A stretch of DNA of 64,000 nucleotides from Candidatus Zhuqueibacterota bacterium (GTDB taxonomy: Bacteria > Zhuqueibacterota > Zhuqueibacteria > Residuimicrobiales > Krinioviventaceae). The DNA lies in assembly GCA_016929295.1 (NCBI GenBank), contig JAFGJB010000214.1, positions 10,261 to 74,260 on the forward strand, given 5' to 3'. Under the pieces are notes generated by a model. The model made no database searches. It saw nothing but the letters and a program-made list of their open reading frames with translations, and was not told the DNA's origin. Shown here piece by piece: positions 1 through 18,997 of this stretch (its first letter is position 1; the number at the start of each line of letters is the position of its first letter). Both the position numbers and the translations under genes were made by a program.

Positions 1-3000
1 GCCGATATAGTTATAAGAGGTGGTTTCAGTTCGTTCGAACACATCAAACCATTCGCCATCGCCAATGCGCATGCGCAGATCATACTCTCCGGACAGGCCC
101 GAGCCATCCCCGTCGTCGCCACCGCTTTCGCCCCCCCACGAGACGGTGAACTTGTTGGAGACACTCTGTTCCGGCGACGAGGCAGTTGCGCCGCTTGGCG
201 GGGCGCTGTCCAGACAGATATAAAAAGAATCTGTGGCGACATTACCCGCACTGTCGGATAAAATCGCTGCGAGCGAATAACATCCGTCATTCACCTCGGC
301 GATGGAGATGATAAAATCAATTTCCTGATTCTCGCCGCCGCCAAGCTCTGTCGGCGGCTCATTGACCTGGGCGCCGCCCAACAACAGGCGCATGGAATCA
401 GGATAATTCTCACTGTAGGTAATGCGAATCTGGGCGCTGGTCGTTGAATCTGGATTCAGCCACTTGTTCTCATGCAGCGCGTTGGCAACGATGCTATTGA
501 CAATGGTTGGCGCTGTGCCGTCATATTTGATGATGGACTGACCATTTTTGTGGAAATCGCTATTGCCGGCGCCGTCCTGCAGCCAAAAATAGACGGTCGT
601 GGCGCCCTCCCGATCATACTGCAGGGTGATGGGGGGATTGCCGCCGGCGGCGCCATGGTAATCGTCCGCTGCTGCGGGCGGCGTCTGAAATTTGTAATAA
701 ATCCTCGCAATGCCACTCGGATCGGTCGGCGATATCCAGCGCACAATAAAGTCGGATGAGCGACTCCAGCGCGGCGCCGCAAAGCCGTTGATGGTGATGT
801 TTGTTGGCGCTGCCGGCGCCACCGTGTCGGTGAACTGCGTCACAACTCGGGTGACGGATTCGGCACTGCCGGTGAAATTCTCCTTGTTGCCGACATTGTC
901 ATAGGCAGCCACCTCAAAAGCATAAGTGTGGTCGGTTGCGCCATTATATAAAACGGACGTGCCTTCATATCGCGCCTGCCACAATTCCCACGCGCCATCA
1001 TCCACCTTGACCCGCACATCAAAGATACCGCTCAAGCCGGCGCCTTGTTCGATCACCTCACTGACATCCCACGAGACGATGAAATCGCCTGGCTTGGTCG
1101 TGTCCGGCGATTGCGCTCTGGTATTTTGCGGCGCAGTGCTGTCAAGCCCGAGCATGGTTGTCGCTGCCGTTTTATTGCCCGCACTATCGGCAACTGTGAC
1201 ATTCAACGTGACGATATTATCCTCAAAGCCGGCAAAATCGAGCTGAAAGCGGGCCGAGTCGACGCCCTCTCCCGGAATGACGCCACCGGACTCGAACAGA
1301 CTCGACGGTTCAAGCAGCACACTGGCGGCATGGCGCTCCTGGAAATAGACGTAAAGTGATGTGCCATGCGGTGGCACGAGCGGATTGTACCAGTGGGTGT
1401 TTTTCTCGGTGAAGGCGGGTCGGGGATTGAGCACCAGACTGTCTATTTTGGCCGGCGTCTTATCAAATCGCAATAGCACCGACGCGTTATTGCGATAATC
1501 GACATTTTGCGCCCCGTCTTGCAGCCACAGATGCAGTGCTTGTCCGTTTTCTTTTGTCGCATTGACAGCAAGGGGCGGCTGGCCGATGAATGAGGCCGTC
1601 GTATCGGCATTGCCGGTCGGTTTATCGCCCAGCTTGTAGTACGCCTTGGGAGTGCCGGTCTGATCATCCGGCGCCCTCCAGGTGATGCTAAAATCGGCTG
1701 TCGGTCGCCAGGGACTCGGATTCGCGCCATTTGCCCGTAAATCAAGGGGAGCGCCCGGCGCCAGAGAATCTCCAAGCGCCGTATTGACGGTCGTCGTCGA
1801 TTCATGGGCATATGTCCGAGTCTCTTCATTGCCCAGCCAGTCGCGGGCAACGGCTTCAAAGTGATAATTGTTGCCATCCTGTGCGTTTTGATAGATCGCC
1901 GAACGTCCGACATGATCATCGAGCCAGCGCGTCCAGCCATCCTGATTCACTTTGACATAGACATCAAAAGTGTTGGACACGCCGACGCCGGCGTCTTCAC
2001 CGGCCGTCCAGCTCACCTGAAACGACGTAGCAGCCGATACCGCCGGAGAAGCGGCCAGACTGCCGTACGGCGGCGTCGAGTCCAGACGCAGAGTATCGAC
2101 GGACTCGCCCACATTGCCGGCGCTGTCCGCAATAGAGATGAACAGTGCGCCCGTCGTTTTCGTTCGGCCCGTCAGATCGAGCGCCACAGTTTTTTTCACT
2201 CCGATGCCGCTCTGCAGAGACGTTTCAGCGATGCTGTAATTGTAATCGGTGCTCTTCAATTGAAAGCTGGCCGCATATTGTTCATGATAGGTCACTTCAA
2301 AGGTAGCGGACGATGCCGTTTCCGGATTGAACCAATCCTCGCCATAGCCCGGCGCCGGAAAACGGGTGGCGACAATCCTGGGAGAATCGATATCGTTGCG
2401 AAGTAGAACGGCGCCGGCGTTTCTGTAATCGACGTTTCCTCTGGCATCCACCAGCCAGACATACAATCGCTGCTTTCCGCTCGATTGCATTGTGACGATC
2501 ATCGAACCCTCAGCCGGTCCGGACCCACCGATGCCGCTGGTATCCGTGTTGGAGACCGGGGCAGCGCCGAGCTTCCAGTAACTGGCGACAACGCCGCTTT
2601 CATCTTCCGGTTTTATCCAGGTGATGGTGAAACGGGAATTATTTGCCCACGGACTCGGAGAGGAGCCGTTCGCCAGGAGGTTGATCGGCGGAGGTGGCGC
2701 CTCCTTGTCGTTGGCCGTCAGATCGACGAGCACTTTTGCCTCGCCATCCGCTGAAAAAGCTTCTGCAAGCCCAACAAAATCGCGCGCGACGGCTTCAAAT
2801 CGGTACTCAACGCCATCCTGTCCGCTGAACAATTTTTCACCCGCTGCCGTGGCAGTAAACCAGAGCTGCCAGGCGCCTTCGCCGGCTCTGGAATAGATAT
2901 CATAAGCGGCAATGCCGCTGCCGGCGCCATCGCTGCCGGCACTCCAACTGACGGTAAAATCTCGTTCAGCGCTGATCGTCGGGGCGCTGGCCAAACAGTT

Positions 3001-5532
3001 CTGCGGTGCAGTGCCGTCCAGGCCGACTTTGGTGCTGATCGTCGTCCGATTGCCGGCCGAATCACGCATGGCCGCTCTGAGAGTATAAAGTCGATCGGCC
3101 GGATTGATAACAGCAAAGTTGAACGCTGCTACTACATCGCTGCCGGACGGCAGATCAACGCCGGTCGCAAAGAGACTGTCTGTCAGTCCGTCTGTCGTCA
3201 GCACAGCCTTTTGCGGATTGACTTCTGTATAGGAGAGAGAAAGCGCAAAATTTTTATCTTCTTTCGAGTTGTACCATGGCTGTCCATTGGTATCAACAAA
3301 CCTTTCTGCGGGCTGGTTGACGCTCAACTGATTGAGGGATGGCGCTGTTGCATCGCGGCGCAAGTCTATTTGCGCTGTGTTGCGATGATCACTATTTCCG
3401 GCGCTGTCGGCTAACCAGACATAGAGGGGTGCGACGCCATCACTTCCCATGATGAGAACCGCGGGACCGCCGGGCGCTCCGGTGTCGTCATAGTCGGTTG
3501 CCGATGTTGGTGGAGTTGCCAACTTCCAAAAGCTCGCCTTGATGCCGCTGTCATCCGGCGGCAGATCCCAGCGCACGGTGAAATCCTGACCTGCTTGCCA
3601 CGGACTGGGATTCGCGCCGTTGGCGCGAATGTTGAGCGGCGCCGGCGGCGCTGCCGCGTCAAGGGTGAATCGCCATTCCGGCGACATCTCGCTCCACCAA
3701 AGGCCGTCCCATGCCTGGACAAACCAGGAATAGTCGCCGTCGTTCAGAGAAAGCGGGCTAGTGAATCGCACTGACCCCTGTCCCTGAGGAACGGGAGGTG
3801 TTGGCGAGAAAAGCTCGGGATTGGCGGACGATTCATAAATGATCGCCTGTCCGTCATGCGGCGTAATCGTCAAGCGGAAATGCAATTGATCGTCGAGATC
3901 AGCATCGCCGGGCGTCAGCCATTCAAAATCAACGGCCGTCGCCAGCACCGCATTATTCTCCGGCGCAAGCAAGACCGGCGCTGCCGGCGGCGAGTACCCT
4001 TCAACATTATTCATCACCAGCGTCAGAATGCCCGTCGTGTCGCCAATGAGAAAATCGAGCGCGCCATTCCCATTCAAGTCGCCGATGTCAAAACTGATCG
4101 GATTAGAGGGTATCGGCACATTCACGATGTTGTTGAATTCACCCGCCTGGTTGAGCAGCAGCCTGAGAGAATTCTGATGACTGCCGGTGAATGCCAAATC
4201 AACATCCCCATCAGCGTCAATATCTCCATAACCCAGCCAGTTGGGGCTAATGATCGTGGAAAATACTTGTGGCAAAGACGTGAAATTGAATGTCGGCAGC
4301 ATGCGCGGGTCGCTGTTTTGGCGGCCGCCATTGCGATAGAGCAGGAGCTCGCTGCCGAGATAATCAACCGCCAAAACATCCGGCAGCAAATCTCCGGTGA
4401 CATCGATGCTTGTTGAAAGCTCCAGATCACGATTGCCGGCCGGCAAGTCCGCATCCGCGCTGCGATGGTACTGCGCCTCGCCCGCATTGGCATAGAGCGA
4501 AACGGTCGCTGCCGTGCTCGTATGTCCAACCCCGATGTCGATAAAGCCAGAGCCATTCAAATCGCGGCTGAATATGCTTTCACCATTGTTCGCTGCATCA
4601 AACCAGTGAACATCATCCGGATTGATTTCGAAATGCCCAGTGCCGTCATTCAGATAGACGAAAGCGGCTTGTGCGCTGCCCTCGTTTTTGACCAGCACAA
4701 TGATATCGAGAAAACCATCCTGATTCACATCATTGATCGTCGCACTGCGCGGCTCAGCCTTCCCATCCGGCACACTGTCAACTGTGAAAGTCTCCTCAAG
4801 GGATAGCGAGCCATTCGGTCGCATGTGACAGATGCTGATACGCGGCGGGATGGAGTATTTCACCCGGCCGCGATGAATGAGGACAAAATCGGGCAGCCCG
4901 TCCGCGTTCAGGTCAGCGGCATAGAGAGGGCGAACGCGATCGGGCAAGACAACGCTGCTGCCGAGCTCTAACTGATTGTCGCGGAAATAGGCCACCTGCA
5001 GGATGTCGACATTCCCCTTTGAGCCGGCAAATACGACATCGCTTTTGTCATCACCATCCAGTTCTACCGCCACCACGGCGGTCAGGCGAATTCCGGTTGA
5101 ATAGCTGGTCGTGGCGAAATGAACACCGCCGGCCCGGGAGGCGATATCGAATTCCCAGACAAAGCCCTTATCGAGAATCCCCATACCAGGATTGTCCTGT
5201 CGTGCCAAAATAGCGGTGATCCTGTCGCCAATCAAAAAACTCTCATCTGCGGTGAATACGACGGTCGAATCGTCATCCGTAAGAGCGACAGTGCCGGCAA
5301 TTTTGCCGCTGCGCATCCCATAGACCGTCAGCATGTCGGCAAAATAAAGCGCGCTCACCGGCTGGTTGAAATGTATCGATATTGGTTCATCTCGATCAAC
5401 ATCAACCTGATTGGGTTTGGGATCGAAGGCGACGATTTTCAGCGAGTCAAGGCTCGTCTGAGCAGCGGGATTCGCGGCGAAAAGGATGAAAATTGTCAGG
5501 ATGATGAAAAATTGTAGCAAAAAGCGTTGCAT
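1..5532 (-). CDS. Giant secreted surface/adhesin-like protein, partial (C-terminus lies beyond window position 1). It has a signal peptide, a bacterial Ig-like domain, an FG-GAP/VCBS beta-propeller region, and at least 4 tandem ~313-aa superrepeats of Fn3-like/Ig-like modules.
   Basis: Hand translation of the minus strand from ATG (complement of 5530-5532) gives an uninterrupted frame to position 1 (1844 codons), beginning MQRFLLQFFIILTIFILFAANPAAQ (signal peptide). An AAGGA Shine-Dalgarno lies 6 nt upstream. FG-GAP-like motifs are present: DGDDKSDVVFAG, DLNADGLPDFVL, INDVNQDGFLDIIV, GDIDADGDVDLAFTG, GDLNGNGALDFLIGD. A repeated module ANGANPSPW...F(T/S)(V/I)(R/T)W recurs at DNA positions ~3640, ~2690, ~1750 and ~810. 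A second repeated module D(S/G)TAP...SW..G.D.G.G(I/L)...D(V/I)...G.W..W....Y.FEAVARD recurs with the same period. The ORF track omits this frame because there is no stop codon inside the window. All plus-strand ORFs here are short and scattered across frames, as expected for antisense of a high-GC gene. Confidence 0.8.
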   Translation of the reverse strand, partial: MQRFLLQFFIILTIFILFAANPAAQTSLDSLKIVAFDPKPNQVDVDRDEPISIHFNQPVSALYFADMLTVYGMRSGKIAGTVALTDDDSTVVFTADESFLIGDRITAILARQDNPGMGILDKGFVWEFDIASRAGGVHFATTSYSTGIRLTAVVAVELDGDDKSDVVFAGSKGNVDILQVAYFRDNQLELGSSVVLPDRVRPLYAADLNADGLPDFVLIHRGRVKYSIPPRISICHMRPNGSLSLEETFTVDSVPDGKAEPRSATINDVNQDGFLDIIVLVKNEGSAQAAFVYLNDGTGHFEINPDDVHWFDAANNGESIFSRDLNGSGFIDIGVGHTSTAATVSLYANAGEAQYHRSADADLPAGNRDLELSTSIDVTGDLLPDVLAVDYLGSELLLYRNGGRQNSDPRMLPTFNFTSLPQVFSTIISPNWLGYGDIDADGDVDLAFTGSHQNSLRLLLNQAGEFNNIVNVPIPSNPISFDIGDLNGNGALDFLIGDTTGILTLVMNNVEGYSPPAAPVLLAPENNAVLATAVDFEWLTPGDADLDDQLHFRLTITPHDGQAIIYESSANPELFSPTPPVPQGQGSVRFTSPLSLNDGDYSWFVQAWDGLWWSEMSPEWRFTLDAAAPPAPLNIRANGANPSPWQAGQDFTVRWDLPPDDSGIKASFWKLATPPTSATDYDDTGAPGGPAVLIMGSDGVAPLYVWLADSAGNSDHRNTAQIDLRRDATAPSLNQLSVNQPAERFVDTNGQPWYNSKEDKNFALSLSYTEVNPQKAVLTTDGLTDSLFATGVDLPSGSDVVAAFNFAVINPADRLYTLRAAMRDSAGNRTTISTKVGLDGTAPQNCLASAPTISAERDFTVSWSAGSDGAGSGIAAYDIYSRAGEGAWQLWFTATAAGEKLFSGQDGVEYRFEAVARDFVGLAEAFSADGEAKVLVDLTANDKEAPPPPINLLANGSSPSPWANNSRFTITWIKPEDESGVVASYWKLGAAPVSNTDTSGIGGSGPAEGSMIVTMQSSGKQRLYVWLVDARGNVDYRNAGAVLLRNDIDSPRIVATRFPAPGYGEDWFNPETASSATFEVTYHEQYAASFQLKSTDYNYSIAETSLQSGIGVKKTVALDLTGRTKTTGALFISIADSAGNVGESVDTLRLDSTPPYGSLAASPAVSAATSFQVSWTAGEDAGVGVSNTFDVYVKVNQDGWTRWLDDHVGRSAIYQNAQDGNNYHFEAVARDWLGNEETRTYAHESTTTVNTALGDSLAPGAPLDLRANGANPSPWRPTADFSITWRAPDDQTGTPKAYYKLGDKPTGNADTTASFIGQPPLAVNATKENGQALHLWLQDGAQNVDYRNNASVLLRFDKTPAKIDSLVLNPRPAFTEKNTHWYNPLVPPHGTSLYVYFQERHAASVLLEPSSLFESGGVIPGEGVDSARFQLDFAGFEDNIVTLNVTVADSAGNKTAATTMLGLDSTAPQNTRAQSPDTTKPGDFIVSWDVSEVIEQGAGLSGIFDVRVKVDDGAWELWQARYEGTSVLYNGATDHTYAFEVAAYDNVGNKENFTGSAESVTRVVTQFTDTVAPAAPTNITINGFAAPRWSRSSDFIVRWISPTDPSGIARIYYKFQTPPAAADDYHGAAGGNPPITLQYDREGATTVYFWLQDGAGNSDFHKNGQSIIKYDGTAPTIVNSIVANALHENKWLNPDSTTSAQIRITYSENYPDSMRLLLGGAQVNEPPTELGGGENQEIDFIISIAEVNDGCYSLAAILSDSAGNVATDSFYICLDSAPPSGATASSPEQSVSNKFTVSWGGESGGDDGDGSGLSGEYDLRMRIGDGEWFDVFERTETTSYNYIG

Positions 5533-5560
5533 TTTTCCTTTTATTTCTAATACTCAACTA

Positions 5561-7528
5561 TTATAACACCTTACATCGGATATTTATTTTCTGATCAGGC
5601 CGAATAAATATTAAAGTGTCTGCCGGCGAAAGCTTGAATTCAGCCCGGGAAATTCGAATGCGATGCCATCCGACAGGCAGACTCTTGCGCAGAGGCGTCG
5701 CGTATTGCTCGGACTCTTGGTCAATAGTGACGAAAGCATAGCCAAAACGAGATGCATTGTCCAGAGCAACAGCGACTTCCCCGGAACCGACGTTATCGGT
5801 TGAGAGCGAAATCCGCTGATTGTTCTCGCGCAATTCGACGATTGTGCTCCAGGCAAAATCTGCTTTGGAATCAATAAAAGTCACGCCGATGGCGCCAAAT
5901 GGCAGCTGCAAAGTAGAGGGCAAATTTCTGGCCAAACTTTCTTCACCCAAACGTATCTTGTCGGCAAACGGCACTTTTTCAAATGTGAATGTCCCCAACT
6001 TTGCCACCGGCGTCAGCTCGATATTAAGAGACTTTTTCTCGTTTGCCATTTGAATGCGCTGCTGCCACGTCTCAAAGCCTTCTTTTTCTACGCGCAGCGT
6101 ATATGTTTGATCCGCAACAAGTTTGTCTATTGTCAGCAGGCCATCAGCGCCGGACTGTCCCCGATGCCGGCCATTGACAAAAACATCGGCCATGCCGTCG
6201 TGCGAGCCGGCTTTCACCGCTAACAGCAGATCGACATATTGCAAGACGGCGGCCTCCTGTTCCTGTCGGGGAGCTGTTTTTATCGCGTCCGGTCCCTCTT
6301 CCTCGGGCACAACCGCTGCCGTCTCTATCTGTTCGGACAATCGCTCATCAGCTCGCATTGTGGTCACGGAATCCACTTGCTGATTCATCTCTTCCTTCGT
6401 CGTTGTCGTCTCTTCCGGAGCGACATATTGCTCGACGACGAACTCATCATAGGTGCGCTGAAATCGTCTTTCATCTCGTGATGATAGATGGGTGAAAAGG
6501 ATGATGCTCAGCAAAAGCACCAGAAAAAGCATGCCCACGACCGCCGTATAAGCCGTTCTTTTTTTACTGCCGACGAGATTTTTTGACAGCGGATTCATGA
6601 AATCGAAAAAACCGCGCACGCGCGACAGTCCCGCCTCCTGTTGCGCCGGCGCACTGTGCGAAGGGACGTCGCTGGTTTCAGGGGGACTGAGGATGTTGAG
6701 AAGAGAGTTCAAACCGACTCGGCTCTGCGGCCGTGGATCAAGAAGAGAGAGCGTGATGTCGGAGACCGCATGGGAAATTTTCGGATTCTCCCGGTTGGGC
6801 GGAAGGATGGTGGAGCGTTTTTCCTGTTTGAGATCGACAATTTTTTTCTGCGAAAAAGGTAATTTGCCCAGCAGTAGTTGATAAAGCAGCACACCCAGCG
6901 CATAGGAGTCGTCCGGCATGGGTTGCGTCGCCAGTGCCAGGCTCTCTGGCGGCATGTATGGATTGACGGACAGCGCTACATCCTGCCTTTTATCGTAAAG
7001 AGAGGCAAGAATGACATCAGAGCCAAAGCCGAGGACCTTGACGTCATCTTGAAATTTCGCCAGCAAAACGACCTGCGGGCTCAACCAGCCGTGTCGAATA
7101 CCCCGAATCTGGGCATATTGCAGCGCTTCGGCTATTTGTCTGACAATCGTCAACACGCGTCTTTCGACGAGAGGGACATGCGCATCAAGCAACGACTGCA
7201 AAGATCGGCCATTAAAAAAGTCATAGACAAGGAAATGACCCTCAGCTGTCTCCTCGAACGCTCGCGGCAGGAGAATGGCATCGTGCTGCAAGGAAGAGGC
7301 TGAACGAAACATCTCGTACAAAAGAGCCACGAGCTCACGATCTTGCGAGACAGATTCATCCATCACCTGCACAAGATGGCGTGTTTCCGATTCTACATGC
7401 AGGGCTTCGAACAAGGTCCAAAAAGGTCCGCTGACGATGAGACGATGACTTTTATATCCTGGTATTTTCATGGATTCCACTGTCATTACTTTACGATTCC
7501 ATGCACAATATATGGAAAAGAGAACCAA
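5561..7528 (-). CDS. Membrane-anchored Ser/Thr protein-kinase-like domain (predicted pseudokinase), then a single TM helix and extracytoplasmic PEGA domain(s).
   Basis: A kinase-fold region carries degenerate motifs: IRHGWLSPQVVLL in place of HRDLKPENILL (catalytic Asp absent) and GFG in place of DFG. No VAIK lysine or Gly-rich loop is recognisable, although the APE-like PPE and C-lobe pattern YALGVLLYQLLLGKLPF are retained. The TM segment is AYTAVVGMLFLVLLLSIILF. The C-terminal PEGA-like region is VEKEGFETWQQRI. The gene lies 28 bp upstream of the giant gene on the same strand. Confidence 0.65.
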   Translation of the reverse strand: MVLFSIYCAWNRKVMTVESMKIPGYKSHRLIVSGPFWTLFEALHVESETRHLVQVMDESVSQDRELVALLYEMFRSASSLQHDAILLPRAFEETAEGHFLVYDFFNGRSLQSLLDAHVPLVERRVLTIVRQIAEALQYAQIRGIRHGWLSPQVVLLAKFQDDVKVLGFGSDVILASLYDKRQDVALSVNPYMPPESLALATQPMPDDSYALGVLLYQLLLGKLPFSQKKIVDLKQEKRSTILPPNRENPKISHAVSDITLSLLDPRPQSRVGLNSLLNILSPPETSDVPSHSAPAQQEAGLSRVRGFFDFMNPLSKNLVGSKKRTAYTAVVGMLFLVLLLSIILFTHLSSRDERRFQRTYDEFVVEQYVAPEETTTTKEEMNQQVDSVTTMRADERLSEQIETAAVVPEEEGPDAIKTAPRQEQEAAVLQYVDLLLAVKAGSHDGMADVFVNGRHRGQSGADGLLTIDKLVADQTYTLRVEKEGFETWQQRIQMANEKKSLNIELTPVAKLGTFTFEKVPFADKIRLGEESLARNLPSTLQLPFGAIGVTFIDSKADFAWSTIVELRENNQRISLSTDNVGSGEVAVALDNASRFGYAFVTIDQESEQYATPLRKSLPVGWHRIRISRAEFKLSPADTLIFIRPDQKINIRCKVL

Positions 7529-7561
7529 TATGCAAACATGTGAGTTTTTTTATCATGTGGT

Positions 7562-9937
7562 TCATAGTGCGACCATTTTCTCCGGATAGATCATGAACTG
7601 AATCGCGCCGTAGCGGGATGTCCTCAGAATGCGCGTCCCTTCCTCTTCATAATCATTCAGCAAGGATTCGGATGGCAAGCCAAACTTGTTAAATCGCGCC
7701 ACAGATACAATTCCATAATCCGCTGCAACTCGCCGACGAAATGCCCTGTCTCCGGCCGTATCACTGCCGTGATGCGCTACCTTGAGCAGCGATGACTGCA
7801 ATAGGTCCTCATAGCGGAGCATTGATGATTCCGCCGCTTTTTCAGCATCCCCGGTCATCAGGACAGAGTGCGCAAAATAGATGCATTTGAGAACAATGGA
7901 ACTGTTATTGGCGTCCGATAAATTGTCATCATGCAGGGTAAACCTTTTTGTCGGATGAAAAACCAAAATGAGAACATTTTCGTCGATCAACAGCGTATCG
8001 CCTGCCTGTACATATTTGATCGGCACGCCATTGTGTTCAGCACAATCTTGAATAGCAGCATCCAGCTCGGAATCAGCTGACGCGGCGGCCTTTATCAGAC
8101 GGCCAACGCACTTTTGACTCATTAAATAGGAGGCGCCGCCCACATGATCCGAATGATTGTGAGTGAGAACGAGATGATCTATTTTTTTTGTCCCGTGCCG
8201 GACAAGATAAGGGTAGATGATACGTTCACCGCAATCGATGGTCATCGTCCGACCGCCGGCATCGACGAGCATCGTCTTGCCGTTCGGGAACTCGAATAGC
8301 GTAGCATCTCCTTGTCCCACATCAAAAAAGGTCACTTTGAGGCCGTCGTGGCGCCGCACTCCCATCCACACATGAGAATTTAAAAGAAAAATAATCGTAA
8401 AAAAGAAAAATTTTCGTGCCCGAATATGTGGCCACAATACGAACAACAGCACGCACGAATTGTAAACCAGCAGATGAAAAGCGGATGGACGGGGCAAGGA
8501 GAGCCATGCGAACGGCAGATGTTGCACATTATCCACAAAAATGATCAAGCCGTTGAGCAGAAGCGACGCCGTCGTGAGAAAGATTGCGCCACAACTGCCG
8601 GACACCAGCGACGCGCACACAGCAATCATGCCCACAGCCACGACAAGGGCGATCAGCGGTATCACTATGATATTGGCGAAAATGGCGATCAAAGAGAGGC
8701 GGTTGTAATAAAACAGCGTCAGAGGCAGCGTGCCGATCTGGGCGGCGAGGGAGACGGAGAAGAGATTGATGATCCAGATAAAGACCGTTTGTCCTTTCTC
8801 TCTCATTCTGAGCAGCAGCGGATTGAGCAGCGCTGACAGACGGCCGTAGAGGAAAATTATGCTCACGACAGCGGTAAAGCTCAACTGAAAACCCGGCTCA
8901 AACAACTCTAGCGGCGAACAAGCGAGAATGATCAAAGCGGCGACCGCCAACAAATTCAGCAGATGAGCGCGACGCTGCAGCAGCATGCCGGCCAAGTAGA
9001 GGATGGCCAAAATCACGGCTCGACAAACCGACGCTCGCATGCCGGTCAGCAAGGCATAAAAGACGAGGCAGGCCATTATCAAAAAGGAGCGCCAGGGATC
9101 CGGAATTCTCACAAAGCGGAAAAAGCCGGTCAGAGCGGCGAGGACAAAACCGACATGCAATCCCGAGACGGCCAACACATGAATGACACCGACGTTGGCG
9201 AATCCCTCCTGCAGATCATCATCGAGATTTTCACGCGCGCCGACGAGCAATGCCTTGAGCAGCGCCGCCGGTTGACCGGATAACGACGCGTCGATGACCG
9301 ATATGATGAATGATCGAACCGGATAGAGGGCGCGACGCATGAAGGGATTGCCCTCTCCTGCATTCAGAACGAGAAGATGGTTGGCGGAGATGATGCGCAG
9401 GGTCGTATGAATATTGCGCGCGGCGAGGTATTTTTGATAGTTGAATTCTCCCGGATTTCTCTCCCCGGGCGGCAGCCACAACTGGCCGCGCGCGACGATT
9501 CTGTCGCCATAATCCAGATGCGAATTGACCACAGGCAATTGTAACAGACATTTCCCTTTTGCCGGATAAACACGATTCAGCACCCATACGCTGTCCGTCC
9601 GCACAACCGCTCTCATTCCCCTGTCACTGGACTCCACCGGCCCGCAAATGACGCCCTCGATGGCGACAACGTGCGGCAAATCGGCAAATTCTTTAATAGA
9701 CCCGCAGCGCTCCAGGGTCTCTAATCGCAGGTGCAAAAAACCGGTCACAAACAGCATTGGCAAAAGACACATGTCGGGCAAACGGCAAACACGACAAATG
9801 ATGCAGAGGATAGCGAAAAGAATGAAAAGCACGAGGATGGGCAACCTGAGATAATTGGCTGCCATTATTCCGGCCACAAAGGGCAGGACAGCAGCCAGGG
9901 CCGGCTTGTTCGACAGCCAGCGTATCAGCTCATTCAT
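7562..9937 (-). CDS. comEC: ComEC/Rec2 DNA internalisation-related competence protein with a C-terminal metallo-beta-lactamase domain
   Basis: Polytopic membrane N-terminal region. The MBL motifs are LVLTHNHSDHVGGASYL and KVAHHGSDTAG. Confidence 0.8.
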   Translation of the reverse strand: MNELIRWLSNKPALAAVLPFVAGIMAANYLRLPILVLFILFAILCIICRVCRLPDMCLLPMLFVTGFLHLRLETLERCGSIKEFADLPHVVAIEGVICGPVESSDRGMRAVVRTDSVWVLNRVYPAKGKCLLQLPVVNSHLDYGDRIVARGQLWLPPGERNPGEFNYQKYLAARNIHTTLRIISANHLLVLNAGEGNPFMRRALYPVRSFIISVIDASLSGQPAALLKALLVGARENLDDDLQEGFANVGVIHVLAVSGLHVGFVLAALTGFFRFVRIPDPWRSFLIMACLVFYALLTGMRASVCRAVILAILYLAGMLLQRRAHLLNLLAVAALIILACSPLELFEPGFQLSFTAVVSIIFLYGRLSALLNPLLLRMREKGQTVFIWIINLFSVSLAAQIGTLPLTLFYYNRLSLIAIFANIIVIPLIALVVAVGMIAVCASLVSGSCGAIFLTTASLLLNGLIIFVDNVQHLPFAWLSLPRPSAFHLLVYNSCVLLFVLWPHIRARKFFFFTIIFLLNSHVWMGVRRHDGLKVTFFDVGQGDATLFEFPNGKTMLVDAGGRTMTIDCGERIIYPYLVRHGTKKIDHLVLTHNHSDHVGGASYLMSQKCVGRLIKAAASADSELDAAIQDCAEHNGVPIKYVQAGDTLLIDENVLILVFHPTKRFTLHDDNLSDANNSSIVLKCIYFAHSVLMTGDAEKAAESSMLRYEDLLQSSLLKVAHHGSDTAGDRAFRRRVAADYGIVSVARFNKFGLPSESLLNDYEEEGTRILRTSRYGAIQFMIYPEKMVAL

Positions 9938-10541
9938 TTACTTTGTGCATGATCCATTCGTGCAGTTTTTGCACGGCATGATAAAATTCAGCCAAACTGG
10001 CATTATTCTGAATGATATAGTCCGACCGCTCTGCTTTTTCATCCTGCGACAGTTGCGAGCGGATGCGATCCAGCGCCTGTTCGCGGGTCAGTTTCTTGAA
10101 TTGTTGCGCGCGCGCGAGGCACTGTTCGATTGGCGCTGCCACGGTCACGGTCAAATCGCACTCTTGCTCAAAATCAAGTTCGAACAGCAAAGCCGCGTCC
10201 ACAACAATATAGAGACATCCACCCCCTGTTTTCTCTTTTTTGATGAGAGATCGCGCCCGCTGCAGCATGACGGGATGCACGATGGTGTTGAGCAGAGCGA
10301 GGGCATCCGAATTCGCAAAGACAATATCCGCCAGTTTTTTTCTCAAAAGCTGATCGTTGGCAGCAAATATGGCGTCCCCAAAGGCCTTTTTCAGGCGGCG
10401 CCGGACGCGCTCATTCTTCTCGACCGCCCAGCGACCGGCAGCGTCCATGTCCACAATGCAGGCGCCGAGCTGACGCAGTTTTTCGGCAGCTGCGCTTTTG
10501 CCGCTGCCGAGTATGCCGGTCAATCCAACGACCGGCTTCAT
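9930..10541 (-). CDS. coaE: Dephospho-CoA kinase
   Basis: P-loop VGLTGILGSGKSAAAEKL and CoaE-like length and layout. It overlaps comEC by 8 nt and the upstream protease gene by 4 nt. Confidence 0.85.
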   Translation of the reverse strand: MKPVVGLTGILGSGKSAAAEKLRQLGACIVDMDAAGRWAVEKNERVRRRLKKAFGDAIFAANDQLLRKKLADIVFANSDALALLNTIVHPVMLQRARSLIKKEKTGGGCLYIVVDAALLFELDFEQECDLTVTVAAPIEQCLARAQQFKKLTREQALDRIRSQLSQDEKAERSDYIIQNNASLAEFYHAVQKLHEWIMHKVNE

Positions 10542-13500
10542 CGCACGATCGCCAGTTTATCAAGGACGAGCGTATCATCACCGCTAATCCGATAGAGATA
10601 GATGCCGGAGGCAACGACATCGCCCCTTTCATTTGTCAAGTCCCATTCGAGGTCGCCATCGCCATCATTTTTACGCAGCGTCTTGACCAGCTGGCCACGC
10701 GAGGTTAAAATCTGCACTTGATCACCCTGTTGCAGATTGGCAAAGGTGATGGCCTCGGCGTCGTCCATCACCAGGGGATTGGGATAGACTTTGACTCTCT
10801 CTTTCTCTCCTGCAGCGGGCGGAACGATGAGCGCGATGGCATCACCTCGTCCGTATTTTACGGACTGACCATTTTCACTCACCAGGCCATGCACCCGCAC
10901 CAGGATTGTATCGTCGGCAGCTGCAATGCGGTCGAGATCCTCGGCCTTGATATGAACCGTCATCGGATTCAGCATCGTCGTAGCACTGACGATAGACTGC
11001 CCGTTGACGGAATAATTGTCGATGTCTTCGACGGTGCTCTTTTGCATCGCCTGATCAAAACTCAATTCAATTTCATGACCGCTTGGCATCACCCCCGCAA
11101 CAATATAGGGGGCATGGTAAGAGGCCTTGATGGCAAACGACTGCCTTGCGGATGTAGAGTCCAGAGGCAGATCATACTGATCGAAAAGATTGCTGCAATG
11201 AATGACATGCTCGCCAACGGCAAATGGCCGGGCAAACGTGAGGAGCAGGTGTCGGCCCGATTGATCGTGCGCCGCAGAGGTCGGGCGCGTGGACGCATCG
11301 ACGATGTAGTGAGATGCCAGCTGCGCAGTCTGATTCATAGCCGTGCTGAAGCTCAGTCGGATGCTGGCGCCGGTTTCCTGAGAAACGGATAAAAGCAGCG
11401 GATTATCACCCGGTCGCGCCGAGACGATCTGTGACAAGCGGCTTTCCGCCGGTGTGCGGGCGGGATCAACCGCTTTGACAGCATAAAAAATGAACCGGTC
11501 TTTTTCTACGTCGTTGTCCTGCACATGATTCTCTGCAACGGAACAGAGCAGGGTCAAATGAGCCGGATCGAGACCGCGATAGACGTGATAATTTTTTGCT
11601 CCCGCCACAGCGCGCCAGCTCAGCTGCACCGTGGATTCATTCAGTGGCCGGGCTTTCAGCGCCACCGGTGTGGCCGGCGCCGTATCACTGCCGATGCCAT
11701 CAAAAGCGGCCAATCGGTCGCCGTCACCAAGCCAGAGTTCATTTTTGCCATTGTAGTCGGCATCCGCAACGATCGCAGCGTTCATCTGCACGGGCGCGTG
11801 ATGGTAAACGATCTGAAATGAATTGTCGATATAATCAATCAGATAAAAATCGGGGTAAGCGGTTATAAAGATTTCATCCACGCCGTCGTTGTCGATATCG
11901 CCGGCTGCGACGCTGCTCAGGAAATCGCCCGTCGACTCATAGCCGAACAGGCGCCATTCCCCCACCTGGCGATAGTCGTCGTTGCCGAATTGATCGTAGA
12001 TGCGATAATACCAGTGTCGCGCGTCATAGTCGTGCTCTGTATTCAAATTCGGATCAGAATGGCACCCGGCAATGAACTCATCCAACCCGTCGCCGTCAAA
12101 ATCACCGGCAGCGATGAAATCAATGCTGTCCAGGAGAGGCAAGTCATCATCCCATGTCGCCTGGTATTGATCGTCACCGCAGTTCTCGTAAATATAAATG
12201 TCGCCATCGCTGTCGCCAAGCAGAATCTCCGACGCGCCGTCGCCATCAAAATCTCCCACCTCGGTGCGAGGAATGCCATTGAAATTCTCGCCGCCGGTGG
12301 GATTCGGCAATGCGGCGACAGATTGGTATTCATTGTCGCCGGTCGATTCAAAAACTTGAAATTGATCCGTAGCGCCCTGGTCCTGCGGCCGGATGACGCG
12401 CATGATGACTTCGCCCCTGCCATCCTGATCCAGATCGGCGAAGCGACTGGCCCAGAACTGTGTTGCCCCGTCGCCTTCCCAGCTCATTGCGACGCTGTTT
12501 GGCAGCCCGCCGGCATTTTCAGCCTCATAAATATAGCTGTTGAAACCGAATCCGCACAGCACCTCCTGTCTGCCATCGCCATCAGAATCGCCCGTATCTC
12601 TGGGGATGCGCCTGTCCACGGTCGCATAAATTTCCGTCATTTCGCCATCCACCCATTCGAAGAGGGCGAGTCGGCCAATGGCGCCTTGTTCGGTGACGGA
12701 CATGATCAGCTCCGGGATGCCATTTTGGTTGAAATCGGATGTTTTCGCGAGCGCGCGCCCAAAGGGCACATTGAGCATGCCGCGAGAGTAGCGCGTCACG
12801 TCGATTGGCGGCGAAGCGAGGTCGACCCGGTAACAGGCGCCATCAGCATCAAGGATCGTCTGCAATCCTGCACCATTCGTGACTTTGAGCCATAGATCGA
12901 GCTGACCTTCCACGTCATTCTGACTCAAATTGTATCTCATCCTCTTCGTTCTGTAGGTGAGCGGTATTTCGGTAAAGTCATTGTTCTCCGTCCTGCAGTA
13001 TAAGGATCCCTCCGATAAATCATCCACATCGGCCTGCAGAAGAATGGAATGTTTGTCGCCGTCCAGCATGGGCAGGAATTGCAGGTTCTCCACGATGGGA
13101 GCGGACCAGTCGAGGAAAATGCGAGTTGTATGCTGGGCAACCACATGGTCTGCGGAGGTCACAACGATCTTTAAGGTATACTCACCTTCCTGATGCGGGA
13201 TATCATCCCAGGTCGCCAGCAGATCATCGACGATGCGTCGACTGTTGCCGATGCTGATGGCGGTCCACTCTGCGGGATTATTGTCGGCGCCATAAAAGAG
13301 ATCATAGTGACTGAAATCAGGCGCCCATGCTGAACCATGGATATCGATCGGGCCGCCGCTGAAGCCGCTATCCAGACGCGGTGAGGAAATGTGGGCCAGG
13401 ACCGTCGTCTGCAAGGCGAGCGCCCGCGCCACCTGGAGTCGTCCTGCGCCAAATTTATCATCCCATCCCGGATCACCGAGATCATCCGCAGAATTCACCA

Positions 13501-14752
13501 GCAGAGAGCGAACCGCATCGGCGTTCAATCCGGGACGATGTGACAGGATCAGTGCCGCCGCTGCCGACACACAGGGCGCGGAAAAAGAGGTGCCGTTCCA
13601 GTTATGAAAATCATTTTCCCGGTCCAGGCTGAGAATCGAACTGCCAGGGGCGACGAGGTCAATTGACGGACCAAAATTGGAAAATCCGGCGAGATGATCA
13701 TTTTGATCAGAAGCGCCCACAGATATTGTCTCGGCAAAACCGGACGGATAATGAATCTCATCGCTGGACGAGTTGCCGGCCGATGCCACCATCACTGCAC
13801 CCTGTTGCCGGCCATACTTGAGGACATCATCGAGAATGCGCGACACAAACACATCGCCAAAACTCATGTTGATGACCTGCGCGCCATTGGCGATGGCGTA
13901 CAGAATGGCGGAGGCGGCGTCATCCTCTTCGCCGTAGCCGCTCGAGTTGAACGCGCGCAGATTCATGACGCGACAGCCAAAGGCCAGCCCGGCGATGCCA
14001 TAGTCATTGTCCGTTTCAGCAGCGATGATGCCGGCCACTCCGGTGCCGTGGCCATGTCCGTCCATGGGATCGTTATCACGATCAAGATAATCGCCGCCAT
14101 CAGGATAATTCGGCGCATCGGTGAAATCCCATCCTCTGATGTCATCGACAAAGCCGTTGCCGTCATCATCGATGCCGTTATAGTCCGACTCGTCCACGCG
14201 ACCGTTGCCATTCACGTCTTCGCCGGCGTTGAGCCACAGATTATTTTGCATATCGGGATGTTCATAATCGATTCCGGTATCGATCACAGCGACGATCACA
14301 TCTGTACTGCCGCGCTCCGTTTCCCAGGCCTGTTCGGCGCAGACGTTCTTCAAGGCATATTGATCTTGATAGAAAGGATCATTGGGCGTAAAATGCAGCT
14401 GAAAGGCGCGATTCGGATGCGCGTGCAAAACGCCGGCCCGGGTCAGTGACTCGGCAATCTCCGCCGCATCGACGTGATCCGGCAGTTCCACGACAACCCA
14501 TTGATTGAGGTCATTGCTCTCCGCATGAGGACGATGAAAAGGAAAAGCGGCTGATATATTCATGACGTCATAGTGGGCGAAAACCGCATCCACTGCCGCG
14601 CTTCCGGTGGTTGCCAAAAACGTTCCTTTTGCCAGAGATGGCGCAGCCGCGAGTTTAACGAGCAATGAATGGGCGGCTGCGCCGCTTATCGTATTCATCA
14701 GCAGGCAAAAGAGGATAAAACTTTTCGACAGCAGGTTCATAGTGGACATCAA
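10538..14752 (-). CDS. Large secreted S8 subtilisin-like serine protease with FG-GAP/VCBS repeats, Fn3-like domain(s) and a C-terminal T9SS sorting domain
   Basis: Signal peptide plus I9-like propeptide. Catalytic triad motifs are VAVIDTGIDYEHPD (Asp), HGHGTGVAGIIAA (His) and GTSFSAPCVSAAAALI (Ser). Multiple D-x-D-x-DG FG-GAP-like repeats are present. The C-terminal KVYPNPLV...GDQVQILTSRGQLVKTL...WDLTNERGDVVASGIYLYRI matches the Por_Secre_tail (T9SS CTD) pattern. Confidence 0.85.
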   Translation of the reverse strand: MMSTMNLLSKSFILFCLLMNTISGAAAHSLLVKLAAAPSLAKGTFLATTGSAAVDAVFAHYDVMNISAAFPFHRPHAESNDLNQWVVVELPDHVDAAEIAESLTRAGVLHAHPNRAFQLHFTPNDPFYQDQYALKNVCAEQAWETERGSTDVIVAVIDTGIDYEHPDMQNNLWLNAGEDVNGNGRVDESDYNGIDDDGNGFVDDIRGWDFTDAPNYPDGGDYLDRDNDPMDGHGHGTGVAGIIAAETDNDYGIAGLAFGCRVMNLRAFNSSGYGEEDDAASAILYAIANGAQVINMSFGDVFVSRILDDVLKYGRQQGAVMVASAGNSSSDEIHYPSGFAETISVGASDQNDHLAGFSNFGPSIDLVAPGSSILSLDRENDFHNWNGTSFSAPCVSAAAALILSHRPGLNADAVRSLLVNSADDLGDPGWDDKFGAGRLQVARALALQTTVLAHISSPRLDSGFSGGPIDIHGSAWAPDFSHYDLFYGADNNPAEWTAISIGNSRRIVDDLLATWDDIPHQEGEYTLKIVVTSADHVVAQHTTRIFLDWSAPIVENLQFLPMLDGDKHSILLQADVDDLSEGSLYCRTENNDFTEIPLTYRTKRMRYNLSQNDVEGQLDLWLKVTNGAGLQTILDADGACYRVDLASPPIDVTRYSRGMLNVPFGRALAKTSDFNQNGIPELIMSVTEQGAIGRLALFEWVDGEMTEIYATVDRRIPRDTGDSDGDGRQEVLCGFGFNSYIYEAENAGGLPNSVAMSWEGDGATQFWASRFADLDQDGRGEVIMRVIRPQDQGATDQFQVFESTGDNEYQSVAALPNPTGGENFNGIPRTEVGDFDGDGASEILLGDSDGDIYIYENCGDDQYQATWDDDLPLLDSIDFIAAGDFDGDGLDEFIAGCHSDPNLNTEHDYDARHWYYRIYDQFGNDDYRQVGEWRLFGYESTGDFLSSVAAGDIDNDGVDEIFITAYPDFYLIDYIDNSFQIVYHHAPVQMNAAIVADADYNGKNELWLGDGDRLAAFDGIGSDTAPATPVALKARPLNESTVQLSWRAVAGAKNYHVYRGLDPAHLTLLCSVAENHVQDNDVEKDRFIFYAVKAVDPARTPAESRLSQIVSARPGDNPLLLSVSQETGASIRLSFSTAMNQTAQLASHYIVDASTRPTSAAHDQSGRHLLLTFARPFAVGEHVIHCSNLFDQYDLPLDSTSARQSFAIKASYHAPYIVAGVMPSGHEIELSFDQAMQKSTVEDIDNYSVNGQSIVSATTMLNPMTVHIKAEDLDRIAAADDTILVRVHGLVSENGQSVKYGRGDAIALIVPPAAGEKERVKVYPNPLVMDDAEAITFANLQQGDQVQILTSRGQLVKTLRKNDGDGDLEWDLTNERGDVVASGIYLYRISGDDTLVLDKLAIVR

Positions 14753-17313: not shown

Positions 17314-17814
17314 TCACCAGTTGGATACCGTTTTATTGAGGATTTCCTGACTTAATTTTTCAAACGCCTCCTCATAAGCGTTGTTGCGACCCTCCGGGCC
17401 TTCTGCCGGATCATAACTGCCGAATTGGGTGATTCGCTCTTCCCACATGGCCTGTCTCTTCACCTGATCCGTGCATTCGACCTGCACGGAAATATAGACT
17501 TTGATATCCTGCACTGTCTCTTGCTGGTCAAATGCTCCGGCGCGATCATTGACGCTGACGATCGAGCCGATGACAATCACATCGGCCGCGCTGCGATCGG
17601 CAATCTTGAGCGAGCCGTCACGGATGAATTCTTCAATGACCGCATCTGTCAGCTTTTCGGACATGCCGAATTCTGCTGTTCTGTTATCAAACAATGGCAC
17701 GGCCACGCTGTGCAGGTGCGGCGGCAACGAGCCTTTGAGTGAATAGTAAGAGCAAGAAAATACAAAAAGCATGCCGAACAGGATCAGCGGTCCGGACAAC
17801 CTATCTCTCATCAT
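17314..17814 (-). CDS. Small lipoprotein, LptE-like (LPS assembly)
   Basis: Signal peptide with a lipobox-like FVFSC. The segment immediately after the Cys, CSYYSLKG, resembles the LptE CGWHLRG motif. The size and beta-rich composition fit LptE. The call is tentative. Confidence 0.4.
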   Translation of the reverse strand: MMRDRLSGPLILFGMLFVFSCSYYSLKGSLPPHLHSVAVPLFDNRTAEFGMSEKLTDAVIEEFIRDGSLKIADRSAADVIVIGSIVSVNDRAGAFDQQETVQDIKVYISVQVECTDQVKRQAMWEERITQFGSYDPAEGPEGRNNAYEEAFEKLSQEILNKTVSNW

Positions 17815-18997
17815 CTCTCAAGCCGTACTTTATAATTTTTCGATATAACGTGCGCTCACTCAGGCCAAGAAGCTTGGCGGCTTTTCGTTTATTACCATCT
17901 GTTTTTATTAGAGTTGATCGAATCATTTCCTTTTCCATGTCAGACACGGACTCTGGCGGCTGATCGTCATGAAAGAGACCTCGGGCGTTGTACTCCTGCG
18001 GCAGTTCGGCACGCCAGGCGCCCAGAGTGTATCGTTGTGGGGCAGCGCTCAGCATGAATTCTCGCAACTGCGCAATTTCGCTCTTTATTTCCAACAAAAC
18101 GCGCAGGAGAAACTCGCGCTCCAGCTCATCCTTTGGCTTTTCCAGACGAACCGGCAGGCTTTGATTGAAATCATCGATCGTATCGATATATTTTCGCAAG
18201 GTCGTTTCGTCCACCAGGCTGCCTCTTTCCAGGACAATGACTTTTTCAACCAGATTTCTCAGCTCACGAATATTGCCTGGCCAGGCATAGTCCTGTAAAA
18301 GATGAAGCGCGCGCTCGGAAAATCCCTGAAATTCGATGTGATTGCTGCGGCAAAAATCCGTCGCAAATTTCTTCACCAGGACGGTGATATCCTGGCGCCG
18401 TTCGCGCAGGTTGGGAACGCGAATGTGCACGGCGTTCAACCGATAAAAAAGGTCCTGACGAAAATTGCCCTTGCGAACTTGATCCTGCAGATCCTTGTTC
18501 GTCGCCGCGATGAAACGGACATCCACCGCTTGCAACGACGTGCCGCCGACGCGCATGAATTCACGCTCCTCCAGCACGCGCAGGAGTTTCACCTGAATGG
18601 ACAAGGGCAACTCGCCGATTTCATCCAGAAAGATGCTGCCTTTATGAGCGAGCTCGAAATAGCCTTTACGCTGACCTGCCGCTCCGGTGAACGATCCCTT
18701 CTCATGTCCGAACAATTCGGATTCGAGGATACCTTCGGGAATGGCGCCGCAGTTCACGGTGATCAGAGGCGCATCATGACGATGACTCAAAATGTGCACC
18801 GCTTTGGCGACAAGCTCCTTGCCGGTGCCGCTCTCTCCCGAGATGAGGACAGAGATATCGGTCGGCGCAACCTGCTCTATCGTCTCCAGCAACTGGCGCG
18901 TCTCTTCGGAATCGCCGAGGATGCCGACTTGCTGCTGAATATCACGCCAGTGTTCATCATCGCTGTAATCTTTGATCAGCACATTTCTGGCTTTCAC
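17801..18997 (-). CDS. Sigma-54-dependent transcriptional activator (AAA+ sigma-54 interaction domain plus C-terminal Fis-type HTH) with no receiver or sensor domain; PspF-like architecture
   Basis: Walker A GESGTGKELVAKAVH, the GAFTGA variant ESELFGHEKGSFTGA, and the C-terminal HTH KRKAAKLLGLSERTLYRKI. Only ~45 aa precede the AAA+ core. Confidence 0.85.
   Translation of the reverse strand: MKARNVLIKDYSDDEHWRDIQQQVGILGDSEETRQLLETIEQVAPTDISVLISGESGTGKELVAKAVHILSHRHDAPLITVNCGAIPEGILESELFGHEKGSFTGAAGQRKGYFELAHKGSIFLDEIGELPLSIQVKLLRVLEEREFMRVGGTSLQAVDVRFIAATNKDLQDQVRKGNFRQDLFYRLNAVHIRVPNLRERRQDITVLVKKFATDFCRSNHIEFQGFSERALHLLQDYAWPGNIRELRNLVEKVIVLERGSLVDETTLRKYIDTIDDFNQSLPVRLEKPKDELEREFLLRVLLEIKSEIAQLREFMLSAAPQRYTLGAWRAELPQEYNARGLFHDDQPPESVSDMEKEMIRSTLIKTDGNKRKAAKLLGLSERTLYRKIIKYGLRDDER

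Follow-up and report, generated by a model that had tools for sequence, protein, structure and literature searches.

PknB/Stk1 PASTA kinases are catalytically active, and their PASTA repeats bind muropeptides. In the sprCDBF operon of Flavobacterium johnsoniae, SprF is needed for secretion of SprB. Bacterial Ser/Thr pseudokinases have been sorted into seven families, and families lacking all three catalytic residues have already been catalogued (bioRxiv 10.1101/2025.01.12.632604; PMC12599244). Bacterial pseudokinases are largely unexplored experimentally, EssB/YukC being the cited case with a demonstrated non-catalytic role (PMC12599244). In the type VIIb secretion system (T7SSb), the membrane pseudokinase EssB/YukC fails to bind ATP and serves as a structural or interaction hub in the export of large substrates (PMC9600267). 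We examined a gene on the minus strand of a 64,000-nucleotide stretch of contig JAFGJB010000214.1 (the window) from Candidatus Zhuqueibacterota bacterium. Its product is very probably a conserved, catalytically dead transmembrane pseudokinase with an ectodomain of PEGA domains, and in related genomes the gene recurs with genes for a giant adhesin and a small TPR+PEGA protein.

The pseudokinase gene is held by a minus-strand open reading frame (ORF) at 5561..7528. Its probable start, ATG 7486, was set by alignment with orthologue N-termini (M-x-DSIKI-xGF), which places the gene at 5561..7486, with its TAA stop at 5561-5563, and gives a likely product of 641 aa, MTVESMKIPGYK. Alternative starts are TTG 7528 and ATG 7471. 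The latter is used in NCBI protein P0001, a 636 aa entry with 100% identity that begins five codons downstream of ATG 7486 and is titled 'protein kinase [candidate division KSB1 bacterium]'.

Residues 12-264 (6695..7453, minus strand) form a Hanks-type kinase-like domain, predicted to be cytoplasmic. They matched Pfam Pkinase (PF00069) with 78 bits against a cut-off of 31.7, which makes the domain a member of that family, and PDB matches were obtained to ULK3, StkP and PknB. The AlphaFold2 (AF2) model has a confident bilobal kinase fold, with a predicted local distance difference test score (pLDDT) of 83-94 over the domain. The top Foldseek matches for the modelled domain were M. tuberculosis PknB and PknA (target-normalised template modelling score 0.76-0.79). 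A first-pass annotation of this DNA had proposed a Hanks-type fold with recognisable C-lobe motifs, and both were borne out: PPE stands in place of APE (6944..6952), and the subdomain IX Asp and subdomain XI Arg are kept. In both sequence and structure the cytoplasmic domain is nearest to PknB/Stk1 PASTA kinases, which have the same order of kinase domain, juxtamembrane region, one transmembrane helix and tandem small extracellular domains. The window protein differs from them in its lack of catalytic residues and in having PEGA in place of PASTA. The Stk1/PknB PASTA equivalog NF033483 was the best NCBIfam match, with 90.7 bits against a cut-off of 450 over the kinase domain only, which leaves the protein outside that family. 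No PASTA repeat was matched in the Pfam/NCBIfam scan.

Catalytic residues were judged by alignment to ULK3, StkP and active PknB-type bacterial kinases plus the family hidden Markov model (HMM), and all of these agree. The Gly-rich loop GxGxxGxV is replaced by IVSGPFWTL (7411..7437). Within it GxGxxG has become SGPFWT, so the loop, annotated at first pass as missing, does fail the consensus but is degenerate rather than entirely absent, with one Gly kept. In the beta3 strand HLVQVM (7361..7378), VAIK has become LVQVM. Q or M stands at the site of the Lys, according to the register chosen for the alignment, and beta1-beta3 are free of Lys throughout. The catalytic loop HRDLKPxN survives as a vestige, RHGWLSPQVV (7067..7096, with HGW at 7085-7093), in which HGWLSPQV has lost the Asp, the Lys and the Asn. 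GFG takes the place of DFG (7022..7030). The VAIK Lys, HRD Asp and DFG Asp are therefore all absent, as the first-pass annotation had read them, both in the window protein and in its close clade, and this is the sequence definition of a pseudokinase. The degenerate motifs are conserved across the family, so the missing residues are not noise. By sequence the protein is a catalytically dead pseudokinase, and it is predicted to carry out neither phosphotransfer nor nucleotide binding.

The family was examined with a word-indexed protein search and with an exhaustive profile search over 1.84 billion cluster representatives. The word-indexed search gave seven close relatives (31-49% identity), and with a 30-sequence ectodomain alignment it gave two proteins only. 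The exhaustive profile search was far more informative and identified ∼55 clusters (50% identity) whose architecture agrees from end to end, with a length of 610-730 aa. By the names of its members, the family falls in candidate division KSB1 and Calditrichota (Calditrichaeota). In the motif table, H-G-[W/A/L/F/C/M/H] replaces H-R-D in every aligned member, and the catalytic-loop Lys and Asn are gone in all. The clade of the window protein (KSB1) has in addition exchanged the beta3 Lys for Gln and the DFG Asp for Gly. Distant clades keep the beta3 Lys (WFKIL, FLKIL), and many keep the DFG Asp (KIDDFG, KVTDFG). Because these residues are retained in distant members, the loss of catalytic motifs is stepwise across the aligned sequences. 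The common ancestor was probably already non-catalytic, and nucleotide binding was possibly still open to it. The most conserved stretch of the close clade is the vestigial catalytic loop, LQFAQIRGIRHGW, which points to a structural or interaction role that has been kept.

A paralogue of 768 aa with H-G-H and the same PEGA ectodomain was found at L097:8387-10693 (also in L098), between genes for a Kelch-repeat protein and an M19 dipeptidase. When all ORFs in the window were scanned with the family HMM, the pseudokinase gene alone matched, and no other kinase or paralogue came up. In a genome-collection scan with the full-length family alignment, ordinary kinases were matched and none of the 80 loci listed belonged to the family.

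Some kinase-fold 'pseudokinases' have proved to be enzymes (PMC12409994, PMC12599244), and the best-conserved segment here is the vestigial catalytic loop. The domain could then be an enzyme of a non-canonical kind, one that AMPylates like SelO or glutamylates like SidJ, for example, or could use relocated residues as WNK kinases do. We consider this very improbable. The beta3 Lys, HRD Asp, loop Lys and Asn, DFG Asp and Gly loop were lost together. The Trp at the catalytic Asp position also occurs in the GLW family of pseudokinases, where bulky hydrophobic residues are thought to block ATP binding (PMC12599244). Catalytic residues that are present but shifted, the case that would have spoken against the first-pass assignment, did not appear in the alignments to active kinases. 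A WNK-like Lys in beta2 and acidic residues flanking GFG were sought in the alignments and the family HMM and none was conserved; acidic residues around GFG differ among orthologues. Relocation was ruled out, since beta1-beta3 contain no Lys and the acidic residues near GFG are unconserved.

The loss of every catalytic residue is also what a decaying, functionless remnant of a PEGA-linked kinase would exhibit. This explanation is effectively refuted by conservation: intact full-length ORFs occur throughout the ∼55 clusters, the family has invariant motifs of its own, and the ectodomain is conserved and gives a high-confidence model. The gene thus belongs to a family under selection and is not a decaying copy.

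A transmembrane helix and one or more PEGA domains had been annotated after the kinase domain. Both were recovered, and the PEGA region proved to be three beta-sandwiches, not one or two. The single transmembrane helix TAVVGMLFLVLLLSIILFTHLSS (6479..6547, minus strand) coincides with a hydropathy peak and a helix in the AF2 model, and is preceded by a conserved juxtamembrane motif, NPxSKNLVGSKKR. Hydrophobicity averaged over 19 residues is highest at residues 314-332 (mean Kyte-Doolittle 2.69). AF2 predicts a long helix over residues 309-352, followed by a disordered acidic stretch and then beta structure. The Lys/Arg cluster GSKKR precedes the helix and fits a topology with the N-terminus in the cytoplasm. 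The acidic Thr/Glu-rich linker of 66 residues (6242..6439) is predicted to be disordered from its pLDDT (<50), its composition and gaps in the alignment, and its length varies between homologues.

The predicted extracytoplasmic part (5564..6238, minus strand) consists of three tandem PEGA/transthyretin-like beta-sandwiches. Modelled alone from a 30-sequence family alignment, it gave a pLDDT of 96 and three consecutive small beta-sandwiches. Pfam PEGA (PF08308) matched the full protein with 33.1 bits (cut-off 20.8). A PEGA match was obtained in 30/30 family ectodomains (best E-value 2.9e-22), and many match CarboxypepD_reg as well. Foldseek on the ectodomain returned generic tandem beta-sandwich proteins only (B. 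anthracis TIE protein, pilins, teneurin carboxypeptidase-like domains). No enzymatic or known ligand-binding domain was found among the Pfam and Foldseek matches of the ectodomain. A Foldseek match of one of the beta-sandwiches to the RtkS-PpkA complex 9k1u (rank 46, E-value 6e-3) was too weak and was set aside. A stand-alone 257-aa homologue of the ectodomain, which has no kinase domain, is encoded directly upstream of parA-parB (L107:6285-7058, and in L108).

The best mechanistic analogue of this architecture appears to be EssB/YukC. Both proteins begin with a cytoplasmic pseudokinase domain, cross the membrane once and continue into an extracytoplasmic domain, and both have degenerate versions of the Gly loop, of VAIK and of the loops for catalysis and Mg binding. 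They differ in the ectodomain, which is helical in YukC and made of PEGA beta-sandwiches here, and in the setting, a Gram-positive T7SSb (Bacillota) as against a type IX secretion system (T9SS) cargo locus in KSB1/Calditrichota, where a role in secretion is our inference. EssB/YukC chains were absent from the top 60 PDB matches by sequence and from the top 50 by fold, and the neighbouring genes (comEC, T9SS cargo, PEGA protein) are not T7SSb genes. The window protein is therefore not a T7SSb member; it has the architecture alone in common.

The GLW family is similar in having lost all three residues of the catalytic triad, in its Trp at the catalytic Asp position, in a hydrophobic residue for the beta3 Lys and in a C-terminal transmembrane segment, which the window protein also has. 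GLW proteins have G-L-W for H-R-D, as opposed to H-G-W here and H-G-[A/L/F/C/W] in the wider family, so that Trp alone is common to the two. In beta3 they have LLLL/W, as opposed to L[L/V]QV[L/M] here (LVQVM in the window, LLQVL in orthologues), with the register ambiguous by two residues and the GLW motif taken from its description; distant members of the present family still have Lys at this site. GLW members are described as mainly proteobacterial, in contrast to the KSB1/Calditrichota names found here. The term PEGA occurs nowhere in the two GLW sources (bioRxiv 10.1101/2025.01.12.632604, PMC12599244), and these mention no link of GLW to an adhesin. Membership in GLW was rejected on motif and taxonomy, the comparison being with the published description of that family. 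An active PEGA-linked Hanks kinase, P0028 (866 aa), also has a kinase domain followed by PEGA/CarboxypepD_reg-type beta-sandwiches. It differs in that HRD and DFG are kept, and in its ectodomain, which failed to align with the three-domain unit conserved in the present family.

Downstream of the pseudokinase gene lies the gene for the giant surface protein (1..5532, minus strand), which opens at ATG 5532 and continues without a stop up to the edge of the window, at least 1843 codons away. Its N-terminal part, at least 1843 aa, begins with a signal-peptide-like sequence and contains Big_5, FG-GAP/VCBS and Big_13 repeats (matches to Big_5, FG-GAP_3 and Big_13). The spacer of 28 nt (5533..5560), exactly as first annotated, reaches from the TAA at 5563-5561 to ATG 5532 and carries AAGGA just before the ATG. 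A terminator-like site was sought in this spacer and no such hairpin was found.

The T9SS type A sorting domain TIGR04183 was identified in the C-termini of the giant orthologues of L002, L090 and L091 (36-41 bits, cut-off 23). The C-terminus of the window giant lies beyond the window. Since this protein is 63% identical to the giants of L002 and L004, we infer that it is T9SS type A cargo as well. Giant orthologues are 1209-3307 aa long. The giants (window 1-5532, minus strand, and L001-L094) contain long internal repeats with BLAST self-offsets of ∼310-320 residues, and the L090 giant has gained a Malectin domain.

The third gene of the group encodes a small protein of 232-265 aa (∼245), for which 67 members were collected (P0214-P0280), among them P0224, titled 'PEGA domain-containing protein [candidate division KSB1 bacterium]'. 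Its layout is a signal peptide, two TPR repeats, an invariant IPPDL motif, a PEGA domain, a Gly/Ala-rich hydrophobic segment and a C-terminus of LPxPPx[R/H]P. The TPR region gave matches to consensus-TPR PDB entries (E-value 3e-9). The Arg form of the tail, LPxPPxRP, occurs in 46/64 small partners and the His form in most others. The order of hydrophobic segment first and LPxPPx[R/H]P last is the reverse of sortase- and exosortase-type sorting signals. An assignment as the type VI secretion lipoprotein TssQ/TagQ was rejected, as the match had 20.5 bits against a cut-off of 65, covered the TPR region only and reflects generic TPR resemblance. Homologous genes of this family are located at L002:20538-21287, L004:11798-12532, L091:2078-2827 (minus strand), L093:4642-5388 (minus strand) and L096:11573-12256. 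The genome of the window probably carries one too, beyond the window edge.

The neighbourhood of the pseudokinase gene was compared across two lineages. KSB1-type loci were retrieved for P0002, P0004, P0005, P0066, P0079 and P0083. Their gene order is LptE-TPR-GT2-S8/FG-GAP protease-CoaE-ComEC-pseudokinase-giant-small protein-RNase HII-UPF0102. The pseudokinase-giant-small trio is co-directional in 6/6 of these loci, with a pseudokinase-to-giant gap that ranges from an overlap to 86 nt and a giant-to-small gap from a 4-nt overlap to 8 nt. In the P0083 genome comEC and the pseudokinase gene are separated by an additional gene, for an aldolase, and the trio still abuts. The P0006 loci have the pseudokinase followed by the giant, with contigs that end inside the giant gene. 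In the P0002 genome comEC is called as two ORFs (L004:105-1268, L005:2040-4682), one with DUF4131+Competence (462 aa) and one with the metallo-beta-lactamase domain (387 aa). The second overlaps the pseudokinase start by 8 nt, which reflects either a split gene or an assembly frameshift.

Calditrichota-type loci, so labelled after one cluster member named Calditrichaeota, numbered 12: a metagenome scan with a clade-specific alignment supplied nine of them, and look-ups of encoding contigs the other three. All 12 have a convergent arrangement, pseudokinase(+) / small(-) / giant(-). At least three upstream contexts were seen (DUF819/TerB; M16 peptidase; ATP sulfurylase/APS kinase), and a PAS-GAF histidine kinase or PHP-domain gene lies beyond the giant. 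The giants are homologous across all loci, as are the small partners (hhalign probability 99.6%), and the small partner is present wherever the flank is long enough to show it (trio loci and L096).

The first-pass annotation had paired the pseudokinase with the giant. This pair does recur in related genomes, including some with differing flanks, but the conserved unit is three genes, one lineage lacks the giant, and the trio survives two orientations and several flanking contexts. The comEC/coaE/protease string is KSB1-lineage synteny, absent from the other clade, and says little on function. The annotation's further suggestion of co-transcription is plausible in the window because of the 28-nt gap without a terminator; it does not extend to the convergent Calditrichota-type loci and thus appears to be a feature of the KSB1 lineage only.

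In sample SRR13394437 the P0004 locus (L001; pseudokinase 41% identical to that of the window) was found along with a short contig (L111) carrying P0224, the small partner assigned to the genome of the window. At least two organisms with the trio module seem to coexist in this sample.

A T9SS-exported giant repeat adhesin beside dedicated small accessory genes is also seen in sprCDBF, which would be an analogy only. To our knowledge the sprCDBF accessory proteins are outer-membrane PorP-like or otherwise unrelated, and none has a kinase fold or PEGA. Full-text literature searches for a pseudokinase with type IX secretion, and for a PEGA domain with a kinase, returned nothing relevant. The pairing had been called undescribed at first pass, and literature searches found no description of it; the pseudokinase family and the gene trio likewise appear undescribed in the literature searched.

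All functional statements that follow are drawn from the gene neighbourhood. From it we think it reasonably likely that the pseudokinase is functionally linked to its neighbours. What is observed is the architecture, the loss of catalytic residues and the conservation of both family and trio, and the following role would be compatible with them. The pseudokinase would be a single-pass, receptor-like inner-membrane protein with its kinase-like domain facing the cytoplasm and its three PEGA beta-sandwiches held in the periplasm on the flexible acidic linker. With the small PEGA partner it would form a non-catalytic envelope complex that holds, anchors or assembles the giant Sec-/T9SS-exported adhesin in the periplasm, or senses it. 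The rigid pseudokinase domain would be a cytoplasmic docking or switch platform and not an enzyme, like EssB/YukC in type VIIb secretion. The proline-rich tail of the small partner would be a candidate ligand if the hydrophobic segment spans the membrane, its topology being uncertain. A scaffold or receptor role for the adhesin is a serious possibility that falls somewhat short of an even chance; a physical interaction, a direction of information flow and an effect on secretion would all follow from that role by extrapolation. More tentatively, and with more doubt than belief on our part, the three proteins may form a dedicated envelope module for T9SS giant adhesins in KSB1/Calditrichota. The receptor and its partner would chaperone, anchor or monitor the adhesin and relay its status across the inner membrane via a non-catalytic kinase-fold switch, possibly docking the LPxPPx[R/H]P tail.

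Several findings weigh against the scaffold or receptor role proposed for the adhesin. The distant family members that keep the beta3 Lys and DFG Asp may bind nucleotide, and therefore the ancestral role may be ligand-dependent switching and not pure scaffolding. The hydrophobic segment of the small partner has a hydropathy of only 1.2-1.9, and whether it is a true membrane anchor is uncertain. In the Calditrichota-type clade the pseudokinase gene, being convergent, is not co-transcribed with the giant. The organisms are represented in the data solely by metagenome-derived sequences, and no cultured host appeared among them. The other points of this kind concern the gene neighbourhood and favour one or the other of two different explanations.

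One of these holds that the functional unit is the pseudokinase and small TPR+PEGA protein only, acting as a general envelope sensor or tether (for example of peptidoglycan or the outer membrane), with the giant merely inserted between them and not a client. In L096 (P0097) the pseudokinase gene is followed directly by the small partner and then RNase HII, with no giant between, and because this lineage has the pair and not the giant, the pair may be the core of the module. Both proteins carry PEGA domains, the partner is seen wherever the flank is long enough, and the length of the giant varies about threefold (1209-3307 aa). Yet in two lineages the giant accompanies the pair, in either orientation and amid several unrelated sets of flanking genes. 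The junction between the giant and small genes measures from a 4-nt overlap to 35 nt in most loci, so tight as to suggest that the two are translationally coupled. The giant is missing at one locus only, in a genome of which just this part was seen. We regard a unit of two genes as unlikely.

The second explanation, an ordinary signalling pseudokinase, takes the adjacency to the adhesin to be a historical accident. The protein would be an allosteric regulator of an active Hanks kinase, or a recruiter of FHA-type proteins, encoded elsewhere. Pseudokinases are often allosteric partners of active kinases (PMC12599244). The KSB1 trio is embedded among unrelated housekeeping genes (lptE, coaE, comEC, rnhB) that follow one another at length on one strand, and the whole block from lptE to rnhB is syntenic, so that adjacency there could be inherited synteny alone and is weak evidence. 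The paralogue in L097 has neither the giant nor the small partner beside it, and by this different context the family includes members outside the trio setting. Against the historical accident, the adjacency outlives an inversion and a complete replacement of the flanks, and no active kinase, phosphatase or FHA gene lies near the pseudokinase gene in the 64-kb window. An accident of this kind strikes us as distinctly unlikely.

Should the three-protein envelope module be real, a pseudokinase would for the first time be connected with type IX secretion, EssB/YukC would have a Gram-negative counterpart, and the family would offer a natural series that begins with possible nucleotide binders, in which Lys and DFG Asp are kept, and ends with pseudokinases that are fully degenerate. 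Independently of this, the motif loss is graded, with the HRD Asp lost in all aligned members and the beta3 Lys and DFG Asp only in the close KSB1 clade, and could serve as a natural series from kinase fold to scaffold. The conserved neighbours, a giant T9SS-sorted adhesin and a small TPR+PEGA protein, directly name candidate binding partners. The family may be relevant to the handling of very large adhesins on their way from the Sec translocon to the T9SS, and also to the question of what PEGA domains do, a subject for which literature searches gave almost nothing.

Upstream of the pseudokinase gene in the window is an AT-rich gap of 75 nt (7487..7561), which reaches from the comEC stop to the pseudokinase start. 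It contains one promoter-like match, TTTGCA-18-TATATT, at 7507-7536 (minus strand), a match to consensus only. The pseudokinase-giant pair may be driven by a promoter of its own in this gap. ComEC (DUF4131 + Competence + metallo-beta-lactamase; 7562..9937, minus strand) occupies the upstream position solely in the KSB1 lineage and stands outside the conserved trio.

ComEC, CoaE and the S8/FG-GAP protease are all encoded upstream on the same strand, in agreement with the same-strand string of comEC and a T9SS protease first annotated. The T9SS label of the protease derives from its TIGR04183 match (34.7 bits, cut-off 23); the Pfam match for the T9SS domain was sub-threshold. This protein (10538-14752, minus strand) is a 1404-aa S8 subtilase with FG-GAP repeats and the TIGR04183 domain at its C-terminus, which also matches the C-terminal part of the PorZ model (54 bits, cut-off 260). 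The subtilase and the giant adhesin have FG-GAP and Big_5 modules in common, and the two are syntenic in every KSB1-type locus that reaches far enough upstream. Further along the same strand (17801-18997) is a gene for a sigma-54 activator of 398 aa, with an AAA+ domain from residue 26 followed by HTH_8 and seemingly no N-terminal receiver or sensor domain.

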